A stretch of 32,000 nt of DNA from Acidothermus cellulolyticus 11B (lineage in GTDB: Bacteria > Actinomycetota > Actinomycetes > Acidothermales > Acidothermaceae), in assembly GCF_000015025.1 (NCBI RefSeq), contig NC_008578.1:2310001-2342000 (forward strand), read 5' to 3'. The position numbers were made by a program, and so were the translations under genes. Under the pieces are notes generated by a model. It worked only from the letters and a program-made list of their open reading frames with translations, was not told the origin of the DNA and did no database searches. The first letter of the stretch is position 1. Every line of letters starts with the position of its first letter. Positions 840 to 20,804 of this stretch are shown one piece after another.

Positions 840-2000
840 TCACACGCCCAGTCCGGTCGCGCCATCCGACGGTTGAGCACCGCTTTCTGCAGGGTGATAT
901 GGGCTGCCTTCTGCCGCGGGGTATACGACGAGGTCGGTCGCTTTGACGGCAAACCATGCGTCATCACCGACCCGTAACCGGAGCAGGGCGAGTGATTCGG
1001 CGGTAATATCTGCGATCATATTCGCCGGACGTGACACGCCAAGGCGGACGACGTGACCGTACTCCTCCACACTCGTCACGCGGGCTTTCCAACAGTTGCG
1101 CGGACTGCCGTCCGGCCGCTCGCGGTACACGGCGACAGCGCTTGGCCGCACGGCGACGAAGACATCACCGACAGGCGCGTCGACCACCTGCCATTCCATT
1201 CCGGTTCCGAGTCGAATCACCCGTCCGTCACACACCCCCCGGTGCAGATTGATCCCACAGAGCCGTGCCACGTACTCCGTGCGCGGATGGGATGCAACCG
1301 CCGCCGGGGCGCCGCGTTGCACCACCCTGCCGGATTCCATCACGACAAGGTGATCCGCCAGGACGAACGCATCCATCGGGTCGTGGGTCACCACAATGAC
1401 ACCGCCGGGAAATGTCGTGAGCATCTCCCGCAGCTCGGCCCGCACGCTCATTCGCGTCCCAATGTCGAGGGCGGCAAGCGGCTCGTCCAGCAGAAGGACG
1501 GTTGGATCGACGGCGAGCGCCCGGGCGAGTGCGACGCGCTGGGCTTGACCTCCCGAGATCTCGGTCGGACGCCGATGCGCGAGCGCCCCGACGCCGAAGC
1601 GATCCAGCAGCTGCTGTGCCCGGCGTCGCGCGGCGGCTTTTCTGACTCCGTGAGCCCGCAGACCAAAGGCAACGTTATCCAATACCGTCATCCGGGGAAA
1701 GAGAACGTAATCCTGCGGAACGTAGCCGACCTGTCGCTCCCGCGGGCTGAGCCTGATCCGGTCCGCATCGTCTACGATGCGGCCGCCGATCGCGATGAAT
1801 CCAGCGGTCAACCGCTCCAGACCGGCAATCGCTCGCAGCAATGTGCTCTTGCCGGCGCCGCTGGGACCGAGGACGGCGAGAATTTCACCCGGTGCAACGG
1901 ACAGGGCCGCATCCAGCCTGAAAGTGTCGCGTCGCACGACGGCGTGGACGTCCAGCCCCGGGTGTCGTGGCGTCGTGTCCGTTGGTTCCGGCATGCTCAC
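840..2000 (-). CDS. modC: molybdate ABC transporter ATP-binding protein with C-terminal TOBE-like domain
   Basis: Walker A GPSGAGKS, ABC signature ISGGQAQRVALARAL and Walker B LLLDEP. Sits directly downstream of modB in a modABC arrangement. GTG start at 2000. Confidence 0.85.
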   Translation of the reverse strand: MSMPEPTDTTPRHPGLDVHAVVRRDTFRLDAALSVAPGEILAVLGPSGAGKSTLLRAIAGLERLTAGFIAIGGRIVDDADRIRLSPRERQVGYVPQDYVLFPRMTVLDNVAFGLRAHGVRKAAARRRAQQLLDRFGVGALAHRRPTEISGGQAQRVALARALAVDPTVLLLDEPLAALDIGTRMSVRAELREMLTTFPGGVIVVTHDPMDAFVLADHLVVMESGRVVQRGAPAAVASHPRTEYVARLCGINLHRGVCDGRVIRLGTGMEWQVVDAPVGDVFVAVRPSAVAVYRERPDGSPRNCWKARVTSVEEYGHVVRLGVSRPANMIADITAESLALLRLRVGDDAWFAVKATDLVVYPAAEGSPYHPAESGAQPSDGATGLGV

Positions 2001-2013
2001 GGCACGTTTCGTC

Positions 2014-2817
2014 TCACAGAGCGGCGATCCATCGACGCCACAACGCCAGCAGTACGCCGGTGGACGCCAGCAACAACACCAGGCTCAATCCGATTGCCGA
2101 TTGCGGATCGTGCTGAAATTGCAAATAGATTTCCAGCGGCATGGTGCGCGTGGTCCCTGGGAAGCTGCCCGCAAACGTAATCGTTGCTCCAAACTCACCG
2201 ATCGCCCGCGCCCAGCAGAGCAATGAACCTGCGAAAACGGCGGGCAACACGATCGGCAGAACCACGCGCCGGAAGATGAACAGCGGCCCGGCGCCCAGCG
2301 TGGATGCAACATCGGCGTACTTCGTGTCCACCGCACGCAGAGCACCTTCAACCGACAGCACAAGGAACGGCATCGCGACAAAAGTCTCGGCGACGACGAC
2401 GCCGGCGGTGGTGAACGGCAGCGAGATCCCCGCGGCGTGCCAGAGCCAGCTCCCGACCAGACCGCGGCGCCCGTACGCCAACAGGAGAGTGAGCCCTCCT
2501 GCAACCGGCGGCAGCACGAGCGGCAAGGCGATGACCGCCCGCGCGGCGTTCCGAATGGACGTCGGGAGCCGGCACATCGTCCAGGCAAGCGGAAGCCCGA
2601 CCAGCAGCGAGAGGAAAGTCGCGATCGTCGCCGTCTCCAGGGACAAGCGCAACGCTGTCAATGCCTCCGGTTTGCCCAATTCGGCTACCAGATTGCGCCA
2701 CGGCGCCCGGACCGCAAGGCTGACGAGCGGAACGCACAAGAAGAGGAAGCCGGCGAGGGCGAAGACGGCGACGAGCCCTGTCTGGAGCGCGTACCTACGG
2801 GACGTCGAAGCCGGCAT
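2014..2817 (-). CDS. modB: molybdate ABC transporter permease
   Basis: Multi-TM ORF with the EAA-loop-like segment VEGALRAVDTKYADVASTLGAGPLFIFRRVVLP. Lies between modA and modC. The preferred start is the internal ATG at 2817; the track ORF extends to 2853. Confidence 0.8.
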   Translation of the reverse strand: MPASTSRRYALQTGLVAVFALAGFLFLCVPLVSLAVRAPWRNLVAELGKPEALTALRLSLETATIATFLSLLVGLPLAWTMCRLPTSIRNAARAVIALPLVLPPVAGGLTLLLAYGRRGLVGSWLWHAAGISLPFTTAGVVVAETFVAMPFLVLSVEGALRAVDTKYADVASTLGAGPLFIFRRVVLPIVLPAVFAGSLLCWARAIGEFGATITFAGSFPGTTRTMPLEIYLQFQHDPQSAIGLSLVLLLASTGVLLALWRRWIAAL

Positions 2818-3718
2818 CGGCAAACACCTGCTCGTTGTTACGGACGAAAGCAACGAACGCGGCCGCCAACGCGGAATTCCTGCTGCCGGTGACGACCGCG
2901 AGGACGTACGTGTTCACCGCAGAGCCAGCCTGCGCGATCGGCACACCGTCGACCTTCCCACCGGCCCGGCGCACGTCCGTCCGGTATACCAGGCCGGCGT
3001 CGACCTCGCCGAGCTCCACTTTGGCAAGCACGGAACTGACGTCGTCTTCGAGGGTCACCGGATGGACCGTGACGCCGGCTGTTTGCAGCAGCTTCGCGGC
3101 GGCCGAGCCGCACGGCACCGTAGGCGCGCACAGCGCCAGCCGTATCGCCGAACTTGCGAGGTCTGCCAACGAGCGGATATGACGGGGATTCCCCGGGGCG
3201 ACTGCGATTTCCAGTTCATTACGTGCGAAAGTCACCGGGTTGCTTGCCTTGTTGTGCGCGACGACCTGCTGCATGATCTGCTCATTGGCGGATGCGAAGA
3301 CGTCGGCGGGCGCACCTTGTAAAATCTGCTCGGCCAGCGTGTCTGACCCGCCGAAATTCGTCACCACCCGAACCCCCGGGTGGGCTGCTTCGAAACCTCC
3401 GGCGAGCTGGGTGAAGACATCCTGCAGTGACGCCGCAGCGAAGACCACGATCCGGCCGCCGCCGGAGGCCGTTGATGACGCTTTCGATCCGTGCCCACTC
3501 GCGCACGCCGCCGCGAACACGGCAACAACGGGAATAAGGAGCACGGCTCGGCAGCGCCGCAAGCCGGATCGGACGCCGCCCGGATATTCGCCGCCCGGAT
3601 AGTCGCGCCGCGATCCGGGCCCGTCACCGTGTCCCGCACAGGTCAACCGCCGGGGGCGCTGTTTCGCAACCAGCCGCTCAATGCCCGACGTACGTGTCAG
3701 AGCCGGCAAAACCCACAT
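2795..3718 (-). CDS. modA: molybdate ABC transporter substrate-binding lipoprotein
   Basis: Lipoprotein-type signal RRCRAVLLIPVVAVFAAAC, then a periplasmic-binding-protein body (IVVFAAASL...NFGGSDTLAEQI). The start is uncertain: ATG 3718, ATG 3781, or TTG 3562, which gives a clean signal peptide and about 255 aa. Confidence 0.8.
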   Translation of the reverse strand: MWVLPALTRTSGIERLVAKQRPRRLTCAGHGDGPGSRRDYPGGEYPGGVRSGLRRCRAVLLIPVVAVFAAACASGHGSKASSTASGGGRIVVFAAASLQDVFTQLAGGFEAAHPGVRVVTNFGGSDTLAEQILQGAPADVFASANEQIMQQVVAHNKASNPVTFARNELEIAVAPGNPRHIRSLADLASSAIRLALCAPTVPCGSAAAKLLQTAGVTVHPVTLEDDVSSVLAKVELGEVDAGLVYRTDVRRAGGKVDGVPIAQAGSAVNTYVLAVVTGSRNSALAAAFVAFVRNNEQVFADAGFDVP

Positions 3719-3725
3719 CCTCTCG

Positions 3726-4124
3726 TCATGACGCCGGAACTTCGACAACGACGTTGGTCGCTTTGATGGCGGCAACGGCAAGGGTTCCCGGCTGGAGCTC
3801 CAGGTCGTCCGCCGCCTCGCGGCTCATCAGCGAAACAACGCGGTACGGTCCGCACTGCATCTCGACCTGAGCCATCACCGTGTCCCGAACCACCCGGGTG
3901 ACGATTCCCGCCAATCGGTTCCGCGCGCTTTCGCGGGCCGTCGGACCGGTGGTGATCGCCTCATGCCGCGACTGAGCCAACTGAGCCAGCTCGGCACCGT
4001 CAACCACCTGACGGCCGGAGGTATCCCGGGCGACGCTCAATGCGCCCGCCGCGATCCACCGTCGGACCGTGTCGTCGCTGACTCCGAGCAGGCGGGCCGC
4101 TTCACCAACCCGTAACGCCGTCAC
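3726..4124 (-). CDS. molybdenum-responsive regulator candidate: excisionase/MerR-type HTH plus TOBE (Mop) domain
   Basis: Only the last 132 codons of the 341-aa track ORF look real. GTG start at 4124. [29 protein letters not shown], then the TOBE-like [60 protein letters not shown]. Heads the mod operon. Confidence 0.8.
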
Positions 4125-4166
4125 GGGCCAACGATACCGCGATTGCGGATCTGGATGCCGCTCTGT

Positions 4167-4182
4167 CTCCGCATATGCGGAG
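4167..4182. promoter_or_regulatory. perfect 16-bp palindrome CTCCGCATATGCGGAG in the divergent promoter region (candidate operator of the Mop/TOBE regulator)
   Basis: Read directly from the sequence. It is its own reverse complement. It lies 43 nt upstream of the regulator GTG (4124) and about 135 nt upstream of the BNR gene start. Confidence 0.4.
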
Positions 4183-4316
4183 TTGCGACGCGAGAAGAGT
4201 TCGCCCCCCGTCGGCGAGCACGTGCGGAGAACGGCGGACGCGAACCCCGCACCGTCACCCCGTGCGGTACCGTGCCGAGACACGGCAGGTGCGGTCGCGC
4301 CGGGGAGGTGGCCGAG

Positions 4317-5429
4317 GTGGCGGTACGAGTTCTCATCGGCACCCGCAAGGGTGCCTTCATCGCGACGTCCGACGACACCCGACGGAGCTGGTCGGTGACC
4401 GGGCCGCTGTTTGCCGGATGGGAGGTCTACCACGTTCAAGCGTCGCCCGTTGATCCGGACCGCCTCTACGCCGCGCCGTCCCGGGGCTGGTTCGGTCAGA
4501 CCATCCAGCGCTCGGACGACGGCGGTCGCTCCTGGCAATTGGTCGGAAATGATTTTCGTTACGACGGCGAGATCGGGGATCATTTCTGGTACGACGGAAC
4601 GCTCCGGCCCTGGCATTTCACCCGGGTATGGCACCTCGCGCCGTCGCCGGTCGACGCGAACACGGTGTATGCCGGAACCGAGGACGCCGCGCTGTTTGTG
4701 TCGAGCGACGGCGGCCAGACCTGGCCGGAATTGACCGGGCTTCGTTGCCACGACACGGCACCGAATTGGGCCCCGGGCGCCGGCGGATTATGCCTCCATA
4801 CCATCCTCTTTGATCCGCGCGATGCCACTCGCATGCATGTGGCTATTTCCGCTGCGGGTGTTTTGCGCTCCGACGATGCCGGCCTCACCTGGCGGACCGC
4901 CAATCGCGGACTCCGCTCGGATTTCCTGCCGCAACCCGAAGCCGACGTCGGTCACTGCGTGCACAAAATCGCCCGTCATCCGGCGCGGCCGGACGTCCTC
5001 TTCATGCAGAAACACTGGGACGTGATGCGCAGCGACGACGGCGGTAACAGCTGGTACGAAATCAGCGGCGACCTCCCCAGCGACTTCGGTTTTCCGATCG
5101 CCGTTCATCCCCATGACCCTGACACCGTGTACGTGGTTCCCATCACGAGCGACACCGAACACTTCCCGCCGGAGGGACGGCTGCGGATATACCGTAGTCG
5201 CACCGGCGGGCGGTACTGGGAACCGTTGAGCAAGGGACTTCCGCAAGAACACTGCTACGTCAACGTGTTACGCGACGCCTTCGCAACAGACGAGCTTGAG
5301 CCGTGTGGACTGTACGTCGGAACCACCGGCGGCCAGATTTACGCCTCCGCCGACGAAGGTGCCACGTGGACGACGATCGGCCGTGACCTACCCGCCGTGC
5401 TCTCCGTCGAGGTGCAGACTCTGCGATGA
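4317..5429 (+). CDS. BNR/Asp-box repeat beta-propeller protein (sialidase-like / Ycf48-like fold)
   Basis: Five Asp-box motifs (SxDxGxxW): [40 protein letters not shown]. Likely GTG start at 4317, with GGAGG 8 nt upstream; 4308 is an alternative. The 5' part of the track ORF (from 4143) overlaps the divergent promoter. Confidence 0.8.
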
Positions 5430-5752
5430 CGGAAGCCACGGTACGGGTCGTTTTGCCTACGGCGTTGCGGGATCTCATTCGCTCCAGCGGCGCAGCGGAT
5501 CCCGGTGCTGATGTCAGCGTAACCGTCGCAGGTCCAGCCACCTGGGGTCGTGTGCTGGCTGCACTCGAGACCCGCTACCCAATGCTGCGCGGCACGCTGC
5601 GCGACCAGGCGACCGGTGCGCGCCGGCCGCTCATTCGGTTCTTCGCATGCGGCACGGACGTGTCGCACACCGACGCCGACCAGCCGCTGCCGGATCCCGT
5701 ACAGCTTGGACACGAACCGTTGCTCATCGTCACGGCGGTCGCCGGCGGCTGA
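5426..5752 (+). CDS. MoaD/ThiS-family ubiquitin-like beta-grasp protein ending in Gly-Gly
   Basis: 108 aa, C-terminus ...[10 protein letters not shown] followed by stop. Its ATG overlaps the TGA of the BNR gene (ATGA at 5426-5429). Confidence 0.75.
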
Positions 5753-6212
5753 GCACGTCGAGCAGCCGGTCGAGGAAAGCAAACTGCTCGGGCACAATCT
5801 TGTCGCGCGCGGTTTCCGGTGAGAACCAGGTGGCCCGGTCGATTTCCGGAAACTCCCGCAGCTGTCCGGATCCTGGCGGCCACTCCAGGCGAAACGTGTT
5901 GCTGTGCACGGTGGTGACATCGAGATCACACTCGACCGCCCACGCGCGCACCACCTTTCCGCCGCGTTGCCGAATTTCGCCGAGATCGACCGCCCGGTCG
6001 ACGGACACCGATTGGCCCACCTCTTCAAGAAATTCCCGTGCCGCCGCGAGCTTCGGATCCTCACCGTCGGCGTACTCGCCCTTCGGAATCGACCAGACAT
6101 GGTGGTCACGGCGGCTCCAGAACGGTCCGCCGGGGTGCACGAGAAGCACCTCGACGCCGCCGCCGGGTGTCCGGCGGTACGCGACAATGCCGGCGCTCCG
6201 CTTCGCGGTCAT
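5730..6212 (-). CDS. NUDIX hydrolase
   Basis: Nudix-box-like segment [22 protein letters not shown] in a 160-aa ORF. Its ATG overlaps the stop of the upstream esterase gene (ATGA at 6209-6212). Confidence 0.8.
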
Positions 6213-12144: not shown

Positions 12145-14598
12145 GTGCTGCGACGTGATACGGACCAGACGTCGGCCGCGAATGGTTCTCTGCCGATCTG
12201 GCGGGACCCGACGCGTTCTCCGCGGGAGCGGGTTGCGGATTTGCTGGCCAAGATGACGCTCGAGGAAAAGATCGCCCAGTTGTACGGCGTCTGGGTGGGA
12301 GCGGACGCGTCCGGCGACGGCGTGGCGCCGCACCAACACGACATGAGCAACCCGGACCTTGACTGGCACGCGCTGATTTCGCGAGGCATCGGACAGTTGA
12401 CCCGTCCCTTTGGTACGGCGCCGGTGGATCCTGCCCTCGGCGCACGTGCGCTGGCGCGAACTCAGGCGGAAATCGTCGCCGCCAATCGTCACGGCGTCCC
12501 GGCACTGGTGCACGAAGAGTGCCTCACGGGTTTCATGACGTGGGGCGCCACCACATACCCCACGCCGTTGGCCTGGGGGGCGAGTTTCGACCCGGCGCTC
12601 GTCGAGGAAATGGGCCGCCAGATCGGCACTGCCATGCGGCGCATGGGTGTGCACCAAGGACTCGCCCCGGTTCTCGACGTCGTCCGCGATTACCGCTGGG
12701 GCCGGGTGGAGGAGACCATCGGTGAGGACCCTTACCTCGTGGGCACGATCGGATCCGCGTACGTGAAGGGGCTCGAATCCGCCGGAATTGTCGCGACCCT
12801 CAAACACTTCGTCGCATATTCCGGTTCGCGGGCGGGCCGCAATTTCGCACCCGTGGCGACGGGACCGCGCGAACTCGCGGATGTTTTTTTGTTGCCTTTT
12901 GAAATGGCGCTCCGCCTAGGCGGCGCGCGCTCCGTCATGCATTCGTACAACGAAATCGACGGCGTACCCGTCGCAGCAAATGCGGATCTGCTCACCAACC
13001 TTCTTCGCGACCAATGGGATTTTCACGGCACGGTCGTCTCGGACTACTTCGGCATCGCTTTCCTGCGTCGCCTGCACCAGGTCGCGGAAGATGACACCGG
13101 TGCCGCTGTTCTTGCCCTCACGGCCGGCATCGACGTCGAACTTCCCACCGTGCACTGCTATGGAGAGCCGTTGACCCAAGCGGTTCGAGCCGGCCTGGTC
13201 TCCGAGGAGCTCATTGACCGCGCAGTCTGCCGGGTACTCGAGCAGAAGTGCGAGCTTGGCCTGCTCGACCCGGATTGGACACCGGAGCCGGCGGCTGTCC
13301 GCGAACTTGGCCACCATGCCGAGACCGACGCCGATGACGCCCGCGGCACGATCAACCTTGACCCCCCGGAATCCCGCGCCCTCGCCCGGCGCCTGGCGGA
13401 GGAATCCGTCGTGCTGCTCGCCAACACCGGTGTGCTGCCCATCAGCAACGTACGACGGATGGCTGTCGTCGGCCCGCTGGCTGACGACCCAGCGGCGATG
13501 CTCGGTTGCTACACCTTCGAGAGTCACGTCCGTTCCGCCCATCCGCAGGTGCCGCCCGGAATCGACATTCCGTCCGTTCTCGAGGCCCTGCGGGCCGAAT
13601 TCCCGGAGACCAAAATCGAGCACGCCCGAGGCTGCGACGTCCGCAATGACGACCGATCCGGCTTCCCGGAGGCCGTGGCCCTTGCGGAGAGCGCAGACCT
13701 CTGCGTGATTGTCGTCGGCGATCGGTCCGGGCTCTTCGGTCGAGGAACCTCCGGGGAAGGCTCCGACGTCCCGGACCTGCGGCTACCCGGCGTGCAGGAA
13801 GAATTCATCCACCGGATCTGTGATGCCGGCACACCGGCGGTCCTCGTTCTCCTCACCGGACGGCCGTACGCTCTCGGCGGGTTGGCCGATCGGGTTCAGG
13901 CGATCGTGCAAGCGTTCTTCCCCGGTGAGGAAGGAGGATCGGCGATTGCCGGCATCCTCTCCGGCCGGGTCAGCCCGTCCGGTCGCCTTCCGGTGAGCAT
14001 CCCGCGGCACCCCGGTGGCCAGCCGGGTACCTACCTCACGCCGCGGCTCGGTCAGCGATCGGACGTGAGCAGTGTCGACCCGACGCCGCTCTGGCCGTTC
14101 GGTTACGGCCTGTCCTACACGTCATTTGCCTGGGACGACGTCCGGTTGGACGGCGTGCCGATCAATGAGCCCGTGGAGACGCCGGTTGACAGCGTCGTCG
14201 AGCTCTCCCTGCGGGTGACGAACACCGGTCACCGGCTCGGCACCGACGTCGTCCAGCTCTATCTTCACGATCCGATCGCCCAAGTGACCCGGCCGACGGT
14301 TCAGCTCATTGGGTATGCCCGAGTCACCGTCGCTGCAGGGGAGAGCCGCCGGGTCACATTCCGCATCCCGACCGACGTCTTCGGATTCACCGGGCGCGAC
14401 GGGCACCGGATCGTCGAGCCCGGTGAGATTGAACTGCGCCTGTCGGAATCCAGCAATTGCCCGCGCTTCTCGGTCCCGGTCCGCCTTGTCGGTGAGGTAC
14501 GGCGTCTCGGTCCCGACCGTGCGTTGGTAACGACGGCGCAGGTGAGCGAACCCGTTGCCGCCGCCGGACAACACCAGGGCGAGGGACTAGCCGAATAA
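12145..14598 (+). CDS. glycoside hydrolase family 3 (beta-glucosidase / beta-xylosidase type) with C-terminal Fn3-like domain
   Basis: 817 aa. GH3 hallmarks: LEEKIAQL, RWGRVEETIGEDPYL, KHFVAYS, and SVMHSYNEIDGVPV...GTVVSDY with the nucleophile Asp. GTG start at 12145 after GGAGAG. Confidence 0.9.
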   Translation: MLRRDTDQTSAANGSLPIWRDPTRSPRERVADLLAKMTLEEKIAQLYGVWVGADASGDGVAPHQHDMSNPDLDWHALISRGIGQLTRPFGTAPVDPALGARALARTQAEIVAANRHGVPALVHEECLTGFMTWGATTYPTPLAWGASFDPALVEEMGRQIGTAMRRMGVHQGLAPVLDVVRDYRWGRVEETIGEDPYLVGTIGSAYVKGLESAGIVATLKHFVAYSGSRAGRNFAPVATGPRELADVFLLPFEMALRLGGARSVMHSYNEIDGVPVAANADLLTNLLRDQWDFHGTVVSDYFGIAFLRRLHQVAEDDTGAAVLALTAGIDVELPTVHCYGEPLTQAVRAGLVSEELIDRAVCRVLEQKCELGLLDPDWTPEPAAVRELGHHAETDADDARGTINLDPPESRALARRLAEESVVLLANTGVLPISNVRRMAVVGPLADDPAAMLGCYTFESHVRSAHPQVPPGIDIPSVLEALRAEFPETKIEHARGCDVRNDDRSGFPEAVALAESADLCVIVVGDRSGLFGRGTSGEGSDVPDLRLPGVQEEFIHRICDAGTPAVLVLLTGRPYALGGLADRVQAIVQAFFPGEEGGSAIAGILSGRVSPSGRLPVSIPRHPGGQPGTYLTPRLGQRSDVSSVDPTPLWPFGYGLSYTSFAWDDVRLDGVPINEPVETPVDSVVELSLRVTNTGHRLGTDVVQLYLHDPIAQVTRPTVQLIGYARVTVAAGESRRVTFRIPTDVFGFTGRDGHRIVEPGEIELRLSESSNCPRFSVPVRLVGEVRRLGPDRALVTTAQVSEPVAAAGQHQGEGLAE

Positions 14599-16257: not shown

Positions 16258-17553
16258 GTGGTCGTCAGCACCGCACCTGGTCGCATCGCGCTGATCGGAT
16301 CGGGAGAAACGACGCCGACGATGGTGGGCGTCCACCGCGAGATCTTCGCCCTGACGCCGCCGGGTGACGCGGTGCTGGTGGACACCACGTTCGGATTCCA
16401 ACTCAACGCGGACGAACTCGTCGCTCGTACGCAACACTATTTCGCGGAGAGCCTCGGCCGCCGTGTCGATGCGGTGTCATGGCGGCGCGCGGACGCCGCC
16501 GCGTCGACGTTGGACCGTGCTCTCGCAAGGATCTCTACGGCTACGTGGGTTTTCGCCGGTCCGGGAAGCCCAAGTTACGCCCTGCGCCAGTGGCGCGACA
16601 CGCCCATGGTCGGTGCGCTCGGCAGCGTCATCCGACGGGGCGGCACGCTCGTGTTGGGCAGCGCGGCTGCCATAACCGTCGGAAAGTACGCAGTTCCGGT
16701 TTACGAGGTGTACAAGGCGGGTTTCGATCCTTATTGGGACGAGGGTCTCGACCTGCTGGGTACATTCCTCGACCTTGAGCTTGCCGTCATTCCGCATTTT
16801 GACAACGCCGAAGGGGGCACGCACGACACCCGCTACTGCTATCTCGGCGAACCGCGGTTGGCCGCGCTCGAACGGGAACTGCCGGATGGGTCGGGGATTC
16901 TGGGCATTGACGAACACACCGCCGTCATCATCGACGTGGCCGAGCAGACTGTACGCGTGACCGGTAACCGGACGATGACCCTTCGAGCGCGCGGTCGGTC
17001 GCGGATTTTCCCGGCCGGTTCGTGCCTGCAGGTAAGCGACGTGCGAGCGTGGTTCGCAGGCGAGGCGACGGTCGGGTCGGGCTTCCCCGAACCGGCAACC
17101 GGGGCAGCACCGCCGCCGACAACCGGCGCGGTGCCGGTCTTAGCAGGTGACGCGCCCGTGCTGTCCCTGCACGAGGCGACCCTCCGCGCACGGACCCGCT
17201 TCGACGCCGCCGCAGCGGACCGTGACGCAGCAACGATGGTCGACGCGATCCTTGGTCTGGAACAGGCCATTCAGGACTGGAGTGCGGACACTTTACAGAG
17301 CAGCGACCGTGACGAAGCACGGCGCGAACTCCGGTCGCTCATCGTCCGGCTCGGCGAATTCGCCCAAGCAGGGGCACTCGACACGTCCGACCTGGTCGCC
17401 CCATTCGTCACCGCGCTCCTCGACGTCCGGTCACAGGCACGCAGCCGCGGTGATTACCAAACGGCAGACGACATTCGTGACCGGCTCATCCGGGCCGGTG
17501 TCGAAGTGCGGGACACACCGGACGGCGTCCGGTGGCTTCTCCCGGAAAAATAG
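16258..17553 (+). CDS. fusion protein: class-I glutamine-amidotransferase / peptidase-S51-like N-domain plus cysteinyl-tRNA-synthetase-like C-terminal region
   Basis: The N-terminal assignment (RIALIGSGETTP...WVFAGPGSPSYAL...GTLVLGSAAA...IPHFDNAEGG) is from memory only. The C-terminus GDYQTADDIRDRLIRAGVEVRDTPDGVRWLL closely resembles the extreme C-terminus of bacterial CysRS. Confidence 0.65.
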   Translation: MVVSTAPGRIALIGSGETTPTMVGVHREIFALTPPGDAVLVDTTFGFQLNADELVARTQHYFAESLGRRVDAVSWRRADAAASTLDRALARISTATWVFAGPGSPSYALRQWRDTPMVGALGSVIRRGGTLVLGSAAAITVGKYAVPVYEVYKAGFDPYWDEGLDLLGTFLDLELAVIPHFDNAEGGTHDTRYCYLGEPRLAALERELPDGSGILGIDEHTAVIIDVAEQTVRVTGNRTMTLRARGRSRIFPAGSCLQVSDVRAWFAGEATVGSGFPEPATGAAPPPTTGAVPVLAGDAPVLSLHEATLRARTRFDAAAADRDAATMVDAILGLEQAIQDWSADTLQSSDRDEARRELRSLIVRLGEFAQAGALDTSDLVAPFVTALLDVRSQARSRGDYQTADDIRDRLIRAGVEVRDTPDGVRWLLPEK

Positions 17554-18884: not shown

Positions 18885-20804
18885 TCAGCCTCCTGACATG
18901 GCCATGACGAGGGAAATTTCGGTACCCGGAGCCACCGGAGTATCCAAACCGTCAAGGGTGCGGATGTCGTCATCTCCGACCGTGACGAGATACGCCTCGG
19001 CAACGTCGCCGTTCGGCAGGACGGCGGCACCGAACGCCGGATGCCGCCGGCTGACGGCCTCCAGCGCCTCGCGGACCGTTCGAGCCGACACCTCGTACCG
19101 ATCCGCACCACCGATCATCGCGAGCAACGGACCGGGCACGGTAACAACAACGCCAGTCGCGGATTCGGATTCCCGCTCGCCGCCGGCGATCCGCTGCAAT
19201 TCCTCGTCGGTCCGGGTCGCTGTGAAATCGCCGAAGGTGAAATCGGCGGCGCCGCGGCGTCGTCGCTCCTCGAGCCACGCGCCGACAAGCCGGGCCAGAA
19301 CATGCTCGATCTCAGTCGTCGGGACGCGTCGCAGCAGACGCCGTCCGATCGCCGCCCGCCGTCCGAGACCGCCTCCGATGGTGACGTCATACGCCTCAAT
19401 GCGCTCGTCGGAACCCTCGACGGAGGTCGACGTACCTTGCAGACCGATTTCACCGATCCAGTGCTGGGCGCAGGCGTGCGGGCAGCCGTCCATGTGAATG
19501 GTGAGTCCGTCGATTTCCTGCGCGCCGAAGGTGGCGGCGAGATGGTCGAGAATCGCGTCGAGTTTTCCTTTCGTCTCAGCAACCGAGTAATTGCAGAACT
19601 TGTGGCTGGTGCACGCGACCGATCGACCGTACGCCCGGCTTCGGTCGAGCGGAAAATCCATGGCCGCGAGCGCGTCGCGGACGTCGTCCAATCGATCCCG
19701 CGGCACATTGCCGAGGATGAAGTTCTGCTGCCGGGTGAACCGCACGTCGCCGCCGAGCTGGTCCGCAAGGTCGGCGATCGCGTGCAGGTGGTGCGCGGTA
19801 ATCCGCCCGGACGGCACCGGAACGCCGACGTACACCAGCTCGGGATTGCGCTGCGGATGCACGCCGAGATGGTCGGCCTCACCGACGGGTTCGGGCGCCC
19901 GGCCGTCGGGGAGTCGGCGGCCCAGCACCTCCTCGACTTTGGCGCGCATGCCTTCCGGCCCGTAATCGTCGACCATGAATTTGATGCGCGCCTTGGCTCG
20001 GGAAAGCCGGTACCGCAGATCACGCTGCCAGGCATCGGTCACCGCACGCAGCACGGCGATTGCATCGTCCCGGGGAACAAAAACGCCGAGGTCGCGCGAG
20101 AGCCGCGGGGTGTTCGACATCCCGCCGCCGACCCGAAGACCGAAGCCCAGTTCGCCGTCCTGCTCAGTCGCGACGAGAGCGACGTCGTGGAAATCCGGTC
20201 CGTTGCACTGAGCCGGGCAGGCCGAAATCGTGTACTTCAGCTTGCGCGGCAGATTCGAGTACTCCGGGTTGCCCGAGAAGAAGGCAGCGGCCTCCTTGAC
20301 GATGGGCCATACGTCAAAGAGCTCCCCGTCCTGCAACCCCGCGACTGGGCAGCTGGTGATGTTCCGGACGGTGTCGCCCTCGGCCCCGGCCGTCGTGAGC
20401 CCGGCGGCCTCGATCGCCGCCATCACGTCGGGAAGCTGCGCCATGGGAACCCAGTGCAGCTGGATGCCCTGGCGGGTCGTCAATTCCGCCTCGCCGCGGC
20501 CGAAAGCGGCACTGATGTCACCCAGCGCCCGGAGCTGGGCCGGGGTCACGCGACCAGCCGGAACCTTGATCCGCACCATGAATGTGCCGATCTTCGGCTT
20601 GTCATGGGCCAGGCCCCACCAGTACAGCCGGACGATCTCCTCCTCGGAGATTTCCTCGTACCCACGCTCGATCAGCTCGGGAAGCTCGTCTCGAACCGCA
20701 AGCCCGGGACGATCGCGTTTGAGCCGTTCGATGAAGTTTCGCTTGTATACAAGGTCCCAGTCCGGCGCTGGCCGGAGCTGGCGGGACGGGGCGGTAAGAG
20801 TCAC
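18885..20804 (-). CDS. sirA: ferredoxin-dependent sulfite reductase (SirA/NirA type) with C-terminal CysO/ThiS/MoaD-like beta-grasp domain ending in GG
   Basis: Siroheme/4Fe-4S ligands CTSHKFC...CPHAC. 639 aa. The last ~90 aa (VVVTVPGPLLAMIGGADRYEVSARTVREALEAVSRRHPAFGAAVL...YLVTVGDDDIRTLDGLDTPVAPGTEISLVMAMSGG) contain no Cys and follow the CysO/MoaD pattern. GTG start at 20804. Confidence 0.85.
   Translation of the reverse strand: MTLTAPSRQLRPAPDWDLVYKRNFIERLKRDRPGLAVRDELPELIERGYEEISEEEIVRLYWWGLAHDKPKIGTFMVRIKVPAGRVTPAQLRALGDISAAFGRGEAELTTRQGIQLHWVPMAQLPDVMAAIEAAGLTTAGAEGDTVRNITSCPVAGLQDGELFDVWPIVKEAAAFFSGNPEYSNLPRKLKYTISACPAQCNGPDFHDVALVATEQDGELGFGLRVGGGMSNTPRLSRDLGVFVPRDDAIAVLRAVTDAWQRDLRYRLSRAKARIKFMVDDYGPEGMRAKVEEVLGRRLPDGRAPEPVGEADHLGVHPQRNPELVYVGVPVPSGRITAHHLHAIADLADQLGGDVRFTRQQNFILGNVPRDRLDDVRDALAAMDFPLDRSRAYGRSVACTSHKFCNYSVAETKGKLDAILDHLAATFGAQEIDGLTIHMDGCPHACAQHWIGEIGLQGTSTSVEGSDERIEAYDVTIGGGLGRRAAIGRRLLRRVPTTEIEHVLARLVGAWLEERRRRGAADFTFGDFTATRTDEELQRIAGGERESESATGVVVTVPGPLLAMIGGADRYEVSARTVREALEAVSRRHPAFGAAVLPNGDVAEAYLVTVGDDDIRTLDGLDTPVAPGTEISLVMAMSGG

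Follow-up and report, generated by a model that had tools for sequence, protein, structure and literature searches.

What does a small ubiquitin-like protein ending in Gly-Gly (GG) do when its gene is coupled to that of a beta-propeller? The question is raised by a stretch of 32,000 nucleotides (nt) from the genome of Acidothermus cellulolyticus 11B (NC_008578.1, positions 2,310,001 to 2,342,000; hereafter the window), in which a gene for an Asp-box (BNR) propeller runs into a gene for a protein of the MoaD/ThiS kind. ThiS/MoaD-type proteins are the prokaryotic roots of ubiquitin signalling, and every member known so far works with a defined acceptor enzyme or target. Here the carrier is locked to a partner of completely different fold, and the two form a ThiS-type carrier system with an obligate propeller partner that is both unprecedented and widespread.

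The gene pair in the window

Both open reading frames (ORFs) were found as a sequence-only reading of the window had described them, five Asp-boxes being carried by a propeller of about 370 amino acids (aa) and an overlapping ORF of 108 aa ending in AVAGG. The features of the pair are the following, with positions counted from the first letter of the window.

4317 to 5429, + strand: propeller gene, GTG start, TGA stop, 370 aa (ORF and translation)
5426 to 5752, + strand: small ubiquitin-like gene, ATG start, TGA stop, 108 aa, C-terminal AVAGG
5426 to 5429, + strand: ATGA start/stop overlap of the propeller and small genes (read from the DNA)
5744 to 5749, + strand: codons of the terminal Gly-Gly (GGC GGC), stop codon next (read from the DNA)
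4304 to 4308, + strand: GGAGG ribosome-binding site, 8 nt 5' of the propeller GTG (read from the DNA)
4512 to 4535, + strand: Asp-box 1, SDDGGRSW, residues 66-73 (from the translation)
4701 to 4724, + strand: Asp-box 2, SSDGGQTW, residues 129-136 (from the translation)
4869 to 4892, + strand: Asp-box 3, SDDAGLTW, residues 185-192 (from the translation)
5031 to 5054, + strand: Asp-box 4, SDDGGNSW, residues 239-246 (from the translation)
5346 to 5369, + strand: Asp-box 5, SADEGATW, residues 344-351 (from the translation)

The ATGA overlap couples the translation of the two genes, and since the terminal GG stands directly before the stop codon, the small protein needs no processing. For the propeller, the start at 4317 was preferred over a longer ORF at 4143 and over the 424-aa database call P0121, because its homologues share this start point (M-x-x-VRVL).

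Identity of the two proteins

The small protein had been taken for a GG-terminated beta-grasp protein of the MoaD/ThiS type, and structure prediction bore this out. Its AlphaFold2 (AF2) model, made from an alignment of 30 homologues, is a beta-grasp fold with a pLDDT of 90.4 and a pTM of 0.82, the C-terminal tail being the less confident part. When the model was compared with PDB structures by Foldseek, SAMP1 (3po0) was the best match, and CysO (4n6e_B, from the BexX-CysO complex, and 3dwg_C) and MoaD (5mpo and 6jbz) were also at the top, each with probability 1.00; HVO_2177, Urm1 and ubiquitin bound to KLHDC3 (9d1z) were listed as well. No NCBIfam MoaD model was matched, the SAMP1 model alone appearing with an E of 0.0018, below its cut-off. 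The small protein has 3986 homologues, and 33 columns of its family are invariant, including those of the motifs YPMLRGTxRD, RRxxxRFFAC and AxAGG. Among the nearest relatives, named clade A here, a GG closes 72 of the 76 complete copies, most commonly as AMAGG.

In addition to the five exact S-x-D-x-G-x-x-W boxes, the propeller has two degenerate ones (residues 18-25 and 294-301), and therefore seven blades; the AF2 strand pattern likewise gives seven blades of four strands. Its Pfam scores were 35.8 bits for BNR (cut-off 27) and 55.2 bits for Sortilin-Vps10 (cut-off 33). The sole solved structure matched by its sequence was PDB 3b7f (E 1.1e-69 over residues 3-365, about 37% identity; Foldseek TM 0.86), and the Foldseek matches that came after 3b7f were GH74 enzymes, DAIP, Ycf48 and sortilin. 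No signal peptide was read from the sequence. We conclude that the propeller is a cytoplasmic seven-bladed Asp-box (BNR) protein, which belongs to clade A of the superfamily of 3b7f (Reut_B4987). Its homologues number more than 8000, and the superfamily comprises 999 clusters at 50% identity (E <= 1e-30).

Across 81 sequences, 108 of the 370 propeller positions were invariant. Asp-boxes sit in the C-D loops and mark the bottom face of a propeller (PMC2716378). Strands were taken from the AF2 model, and the standard topology of propellers was then applied to place the residues. By these rules the top-face loops hold 52 invariant residues, or 36% of their positions, against only 10% in the A-B loops of the bottom face, and the innermost strands bear H39, H106, H161, H216, D325 and E365/Q367, approximately one polar residue per blade. 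All clades retain H161, H216, H233, H264 and R319. A His-rich ring and top face of this kind would fit an axial ligand or metal site lying below a large conserved docking face. Seven-bladed propellers whose inner-strand histidines point towards the axis and hold a metal centre include the CuZ protein N2O reductase, thiocyanate dehydrogenase and the carotenoid cleavage oxygenases. These are unrelated families, and the ring of the window propeller is placed by sequence position only.

Other identities were considered and rejected. RefSeq names these propellers exo-alpha-sialidases, and GH33 sialidases do carry Asp-box repeats on a beta-propeller; theirs, however, is six-bladed, whereas the protein of the window has seven blades, carries no signal peptide, scored 24.1 bits for BNR_2 (PF13088), where 31.4 is required, and had no sialidase among its best structural matches. 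The RefSeq name is a repeat-level annotation and not a functional one. GH74 xyloglucanases consist of two tandem seven-bladed propellers, while this protein is a single propeller of 370 aa, and the matches to them cover one domain (TM to target 0.32-0.36). The label 'photosystem II assembly factor-like' used by JGI for homologues refers to Ycf48/HCF136, for which the scores were 17.3 bits with PF14870 (cut-off 27) and 17.6 with NF010237 (cut-off 326). The small protein, in turn, is not MoaD proper, as it matches no MoaD model and no gene for MoaE or molybdenum cofactor (Moco) synthesis lies in the window or beside the 80 relatives described next.

Conservation of the pair

One genome per GTDB species, 185,579 genomes in all, was scanned with the propeller as query, and at least 598 of them contained clade A propellers; the clade A counts given here rest on the best 80 of these relatives. 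The small gene lay directly downstream on the same strand in all 80 loci, and the 4-bp ATGA overlap was kept in 68 of them; the translational coupling proposed from the window alone is supported. Such pairing far exceeds chance and is near-obligate. The sequence-only reading had called for a comparison across Actinobacteria, a scope that proved too narrow, since the 80 loci cover about 12 phyla; their taxa are Actinomycetota, Acidobacteriota, Gemmatimonadota, Verrucomicrobiota, Planctomycetota, Chloroflexota, Dormibacterota, Eremiobacterota, Methylomirabilota, Hydrogenedentota, Rhodothermales, Proteobacteria and a metagenome-assembled genome (MAG) of Firmicutes. Mean propeller identity among these loci (L001-L080) was 79.2% within phyla versus 77.8% between them. 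Essentially no phylum signal is left, owing either to extreme constraint or to frequent horizontal transfer. With about 69% identity to all 80 relatives, the propeller of the window is an outlier.

Two divergent clades also keep the pair. Clade B, a proteobacterial clade of Burkholderiales and Pseudomonas found by tblastn against plasmids and chromids, has propellers 32-36% identical to that of the window, from Ralstonia solanacearum, Burkholderia, Cupriavidus metallidurans CH34, Mitsuaria and a plasmid region of Pseudomonas aeruginosa. In 5 of 5 loci (L174, positions 2699-4095, from P. aeruginosa pZYPA1927; L085, L086, L087 and L175) an 89-aa MoaD/ThiS gene ending in QALSGG was located directly upstream of the propeller, that is, in reversed order. 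Clade D was collected by a metagenome scan with the 3b7f sequence, which gave 80 loci with propellers 65-73% identical to 3b7f, and an 86-aa gene ending in ALSGG was located directly downstream in 73 of the 74 loci that had at least 300 bp of DNA there. Gene-neighbourhood conservation, the check that the sequence-only reading had called for, was thus found in all three clades, and the refuting condition set by that reading, a pairing not conserved in relatives, decisively fails.

With 52 bits in clade D and 27.7 bits in clade B, the partner proteins exceed the cut-off of the Pfam ThiS model PF02597 (22.5 bits), and the small-protein family of clade A aligns over its full length to the partner family of clade D (hhalign 97.2%, E 3.7e-11). 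The partnership of carrier and propeller is therefore older than the split of clades A, B and D, and it outlived a reversal of gene order. The carrier of clade A is too divergent to match the Pfam ThiS model, but by its fold, its GG end and its profile similarity it belongs to the ThiS/MoaD superfamily. Since the pairing survived both the change of order and the fall of propeller identity to 32-37%, we argue that the two proteins are linked functionally or physically.

A fourth clade, C (Streptomyces, Rhodobacter, Marivivens and Fuscovulum; about 40-42% identity), had no carrier gene within 3-4 kb of the propeller in 4 of 4 loci. The clade C propeller of Rhodobacter sp. CZR27 (L084, positions 1592-5119) divergently adjoins egtB-egtD of ergothioneine synthesis, a single case.

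The pair is present in model organisms, namely P. aeruginosa, R. solanacearum, Burkholderia and C. metallidurans. In P. aeruginosa it sits among genes for an extracytoplasmic function (ECF) sigma factor, MFS, VOC, YciI and YbaK proteins and pmpM, and it probably corresponds to PA1355/PA1356. PA1356 was mentioned once in a transcriptome paper, where it was treated as an adhesion or biofilm factor (PMC11538994), apparently owing to its sialidase-type name. Our literature search found no description of the pair, of the function of 3b7f/Reut_B4987, or of the pairing of PA1355 with PA1356. Two beta-grasp surveys from the Aravind group mention no BNR, Asp-box or sialidase-type partner; the word 'propeller' is absent from one of them, and the other has only a domain abbreviation in a figure legend. 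The sequence-only reading had regarded the module as uncharacterised and its partner as neither MoaE nor ThiF/ThiG, in agreement with the propeller partner found throughout and with this search.

Genes beside the pair in other genomes

In order to find further members of the system, ORFs of the 80 clade A and 80 clade D loci were clustered all against all. No third gene was conserved beside the pair in either set. In clade A the pair and its shadow ORFs were followed in frequency by clusters of ECF sigma factors (10 of 80) and YciI-like proteins (9 of 80), and Pfam searches with the first and second neighbours of the pair in these 80 loci gave no family with more than 4 members. No mod, TOBE, MoaE, other Moco, ThiG or JAMM gene recurred beside the pair in these loci, and the 32-kb window contains no gene for MoaE, Moco synthesis, ThiG, JAMM or a ThiF-type E1.

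Two kinds of neighbour occurred repeatedly in clade D. A gene for an E1 with ThiF and rhodanese domains followed the small gene by a few bases on the same strand in 6 of 80 loci, and such a gene was also found divergently upstream of the pair in 1 of 80 clade A loci (L068, Parahaliea). E1 enzymes of the ThiF-rhodanese type, such as MoeZ, MOCS3 and Uba4, make thiocarboxylates. A Prx5-type peroxiredoxin gene was located divergently just upstream of the pair in 11 clade D loci (L113, L116, L121, L122, L123, L129, L131, L134, L141, L147 and L163). All 11 belong to one synteny group (mnmG-parA-parB ... atpI-atpB), and the adjacency may reflect nothing more than inherited gene order. In gene tables from three other places the pair stood among HxlR, VOC/PhnB-like, YciI, DoxX and ECF sigma genes, a setting that hints weakly at a stress island. 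A paper on ECF classification contained nothing on the pair in connection with ECF42.

Fused and extended forms

Natural fusions of the two proteins were found in both orders. P0244, from a JGI contig, is a propeller-carrier fusion whose junction was checked in the DNA. P0287 and P0383, available as protein sequences only, are carrier-propeller fusions with an N-terminal ThiS domain and an internal GG, and P0277, likewise known from its protein sequence, has a Ser/Thr protein kinase fused N-terminally to the propeller. A precedent for fusions with the carrier upstream of the acceptor is MoaX of Mycobacterium tuberculosis, a MoaD-MoaE fusion that is cleaved. Many database 'fusions' of about 469 aa are, however, frameshift artefacts of long-read MAGs, in which the propeller C-terminus is garbled and adjoining genes are split (L082; P0242, P0243, P0245, P0248, P0250 and P0260), and therefore database fusions should be used with caution as Rosetta-stone evidence.

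Some small proteins continue beyond the GG. In L065, L069, L080, P0090 and P0011, 2-25 extra residues follow it, and in L076, a Bryobacterales contig (about 1947-3180), no stop codon separates the AIAGG of the small protein from an ECF sigma factor into which the frame continues. Either such forms are precursors awaiting processing, or they arose as errors of assembly.

Proposed mechanism and alternatives

Four findings have to be explained: the beta-grasp fold with its GG end, the coupled pairing over many phyla and three clades, the occasional linkage to an E1 gene, and the invariant residues of the top face and inner strands. Taking these together, we consider it about evenly balanced whether the pair is the core of a hitherto unrecognised, phylum-spanning ubiquitin-like (Ubl) carrier system in which a propeller with an axial His site, perhaps holding a metal, performs new chemistry on an activated ThiS-like C-terminus, either inserting sulfur into a metabolite or metal centre or acting in Urm1-like tagging or persulfidation. 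More specifically, the reading we prefer, though with somewhat less than even confidence, is a self-contained two-protein system for sulfur transfer, made up of a ThiS/MoaD-type carrier and a dedicated acceptor of a new fold.

For this sulfur-transfer system we infer the activation, the docking geometry, the metal and the transfer itself as follows. An E1 with a rhodanese domain (MoeZ/MoeB class), usually encoded elsewhere in the genome, would activate the C-terminal glycine of the small protein and most likely turn it into a thiocarboxylate. The small protein would then dock on the propeller, so that its flexible A-x-A-G-G tail could enter an axial pocket predicted to be lined by the invariant His39, His106, His161 and His216 together with Asp325 and Glu365/Gln367, and to be ringed by the near-invariant top face. 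The propeller would be the acceptor enzyme, as MoaE, ThiG, CysM and BexX are for their own carriers, and might pass the sulfur to some substrate, possibly with the aid of a metal in the His ring.

Several results weigh against sulfur transfer of this kind. The small protein itself matches no Pfam family and gave no PF02597 ThiS hit at E <= 0.1. Beside the pair, the clade A and D loci share no gene for a substrate, a cofactor or a pathway, and E1 linkage is rare (7 of 160 loci). Since clade C propellers have no adjacent carrier, a propeller may act independently of one. The His ring was deduced from propeller topology rules and not seen in coordinates. Docking was probed with an AF2 model of the natural fusion P0244 built on a block alignment; in this single-chain fusion the model reached a pTM of 0.74, with the terminal GG at a pLDDT of 44, and did not show the tail docked. 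The post-GG extensions and internal GG of some family members also do not fit easily. Finally, we know of no Asp-box propeller that uses a thiocarboxylate.

The closest alternative is tagging or persulfidation like that of Urm1 and SAMP, in which the E1-activated small protein is joined to proteins without E2 or E3 and the propeller serves as dedicated target, as substrate-recruiting adaptor or as the protein that reads the GG end. We consider this possible, but unlikely. SAMP1 is the closest structural match and Urm1 complexes match too, rhodanese-type E1s of the Urm1 kind stand now and then in the operon, and both proteins are conserved to the very high degree usually seen in proteins that interact with several others. 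Propellers often serve as receptors for substrates or degrons: among Kelch propellers, KLHDC2 and KLHDC3 recognise a GG at the C-terminus, and it was the KLHDC3-ubiquitin complex that Foldseek listed. Stress-type small proteins (HxlR, VOC and YciI) and an ECF sigma factor recur near the pair, and the peroxiredoxin gene beside 11 clade D pairs recalls Urm1-Ahp1, although its confinement to the parB...atpI synteny group could mean that its position was simply inherited. What speaks against tagging is that no JAMM or other deconjugase is linked among the neighbours of the loci, and that a protein modifier usually acts on many targets, its gene not being strictly coupled to that of a single partner. 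Alternatively, the propeller might itself be a hydrolase acting on the C-terminus of the small protein, in precursor processing, deconjugation or thiocarboxylate hydrolysis, and would then replace the JAMM protease of the CysO, QbsE and SAMP systems. The extended forms, the sigma factor fusion of L076 and the internal GG of P0287 and P0383 would all require cleavage if a free GG is needed, no JAMM gene lies near the pair, the invariant His/Asp/Glu cluster could hold a catalytic metal, and hydrolases make up the majority of the Asp-box propellers characterised so far (PMC2716378). A GG end, however, is already present in more than 90% of the small proteins, so that processing would rarely be needed; a tag and its remover alone give no evident output; and some of the extended or fused forms may be assembly errors, as frameshifted fusions are clear in long-read MAGs. 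We regard a hydrolase as decidedly unlikely.

Slightly less probable again is that the small protein binds non-covalently, as a structural or regulatory subunit whose GG tail is only a plug or ligand, to a propeller with a ligand-binding or enzymatic function of its own. Clade C propellers, which stand without an adjacent carrier, would suit such an arrangement, the kinase-propeller fusion P0277 suggests a sensor role for the domain, and in carrier-propeller fusions, where the GG is internal, such a subunit would need no free C-terminus. The exact C-terminal GG, on the other hand, is kept in three clades over great distances and is the hallmark of C-terminal activation in the ThiS/MoaD/Ubl superfamily, and at some loci an E1 gene is part of the operon. 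It is very improbable that the small gene simply encodes the MoaD of Moco synthesis and stands beside modABC as such, with the propeller as an unrelated neighbour. That idea draws on the position of the pair next to a helix-turn-helix (HTH)-TOBE regulator and modABC in the window and on the JGI label 'molybdopterin synthase sulfur carrier subunit' of some homologues; it conflicts with the propeller partner in 80 of 80 loci, overlapping translationally in 68, with the lack of any recurring MoaE, other Moco or mod gene in these, and with a protein that matches neither NCBIfam MoaD nor Pfam ThiS and whose family has invariant motifs of its own.

Comparison with known carrier systems

The pair resembles MoaD-MoaE, ThiS-ThiG, CysO-CysM and the BexX-CysO system of 2-thiosugar synthesis (PDB 4n6e) in that a GG-terminated beta-grasp gene stands beside, and is often coupled to, the gene of its acceptor, and in that an E1 of the ThiF/MoeB class with a rhodanese domain is occasionally in the same operon. 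It differs from the MoaD, ThiS and CysO pairs in the partner, which is a seven-bladed Asp-box propeller in place of a MoaE fold, TIM barrel or pyridoxal phosphate enzyme, and no pathway genes accompany it. With Urm1-Uba4-Ahp1 and SAMP-UbaA-JAMM it shares the fold of the small protein and the GG end. In those systems a single E1 suffices, with the rhodanese domain included in Uba4, and the modifier can serve both as sulfur carrier and as protein tag; they have no dedicated propeller partner, whereas the present system has no linked JAMM protease.

The nearest solved relative of the propeller, 3b7f, comes from R. eutropha JMP134 and was deposited by structural genomics as 'glycosyl hydrolase, BNR repeat'; the only paper found on it describes a seven-bladed Asp-box propeller with function 'not known' (PMC2716378). 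It is of the same superfamily and has the same seven blades and five Asp-boxes, but it belongs to clade D, lacks Cys214, His106, His282 and Cys313 of the window family, and was solved without a partner. With a crystal structure for one clade and genetically tractable hosts the system is open to experiment, and it could reveal a new sulfur metabolite, a step of cofactor maturation or bacterial protein tagging.

Surroundings of the pair in A. cellulolyticus

Downstream, a NUDIX hydrolase gene (5730-6212, - strand) converges on the small gene, the 3' ends of the two sharing 23 nt (5730-5752), and no terminator-like site lies between them. Two genes of sulfur metabolism follow 10-15 kb downstream of the pair, to which they are unlinked in other genomes. 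One encodes a protein that matches only the C-terminal anticodon-binding domain of CysS (16258-17553; possibly MshC- or CysS-like) and the other a sulfite/nitrite reductase (NIR_SIR; 18885-20804).

Upstream, the divergent neighbour is a regulator with HTH and TOBE domains, followed by modA and modB, both above their NCBIfam cut-offs, and a gene for a modC-like ATPase, so the sequence-only reading had described this side of the locus accurately. It had further suggested that the pair may be regulated by molybdate. As mod and TOBE genes do not recur beside the pair, the promoter region shared with modABC is specific to this genome, and a molybdate link was rejected as a property of the family because no mod, TOBE or Moco gene recurs in the 80 loci; molybdate control of the pair in this one genome is possible as a local hypothesis. 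The divergent intergenic region contains a perfect 16-bp palindrome, CTCCGCATATGCGGAG, at 4167-4182, which lies 16 nt 5' of the start of the HTH-TOBE regulator and 135 nt 5' of that of the propeller. It has no second exact copy in the window and one site with 3 mismatches at 12910 (0.13 expected by chance). The palindrome is a candidate operator of the molybdate regulator.

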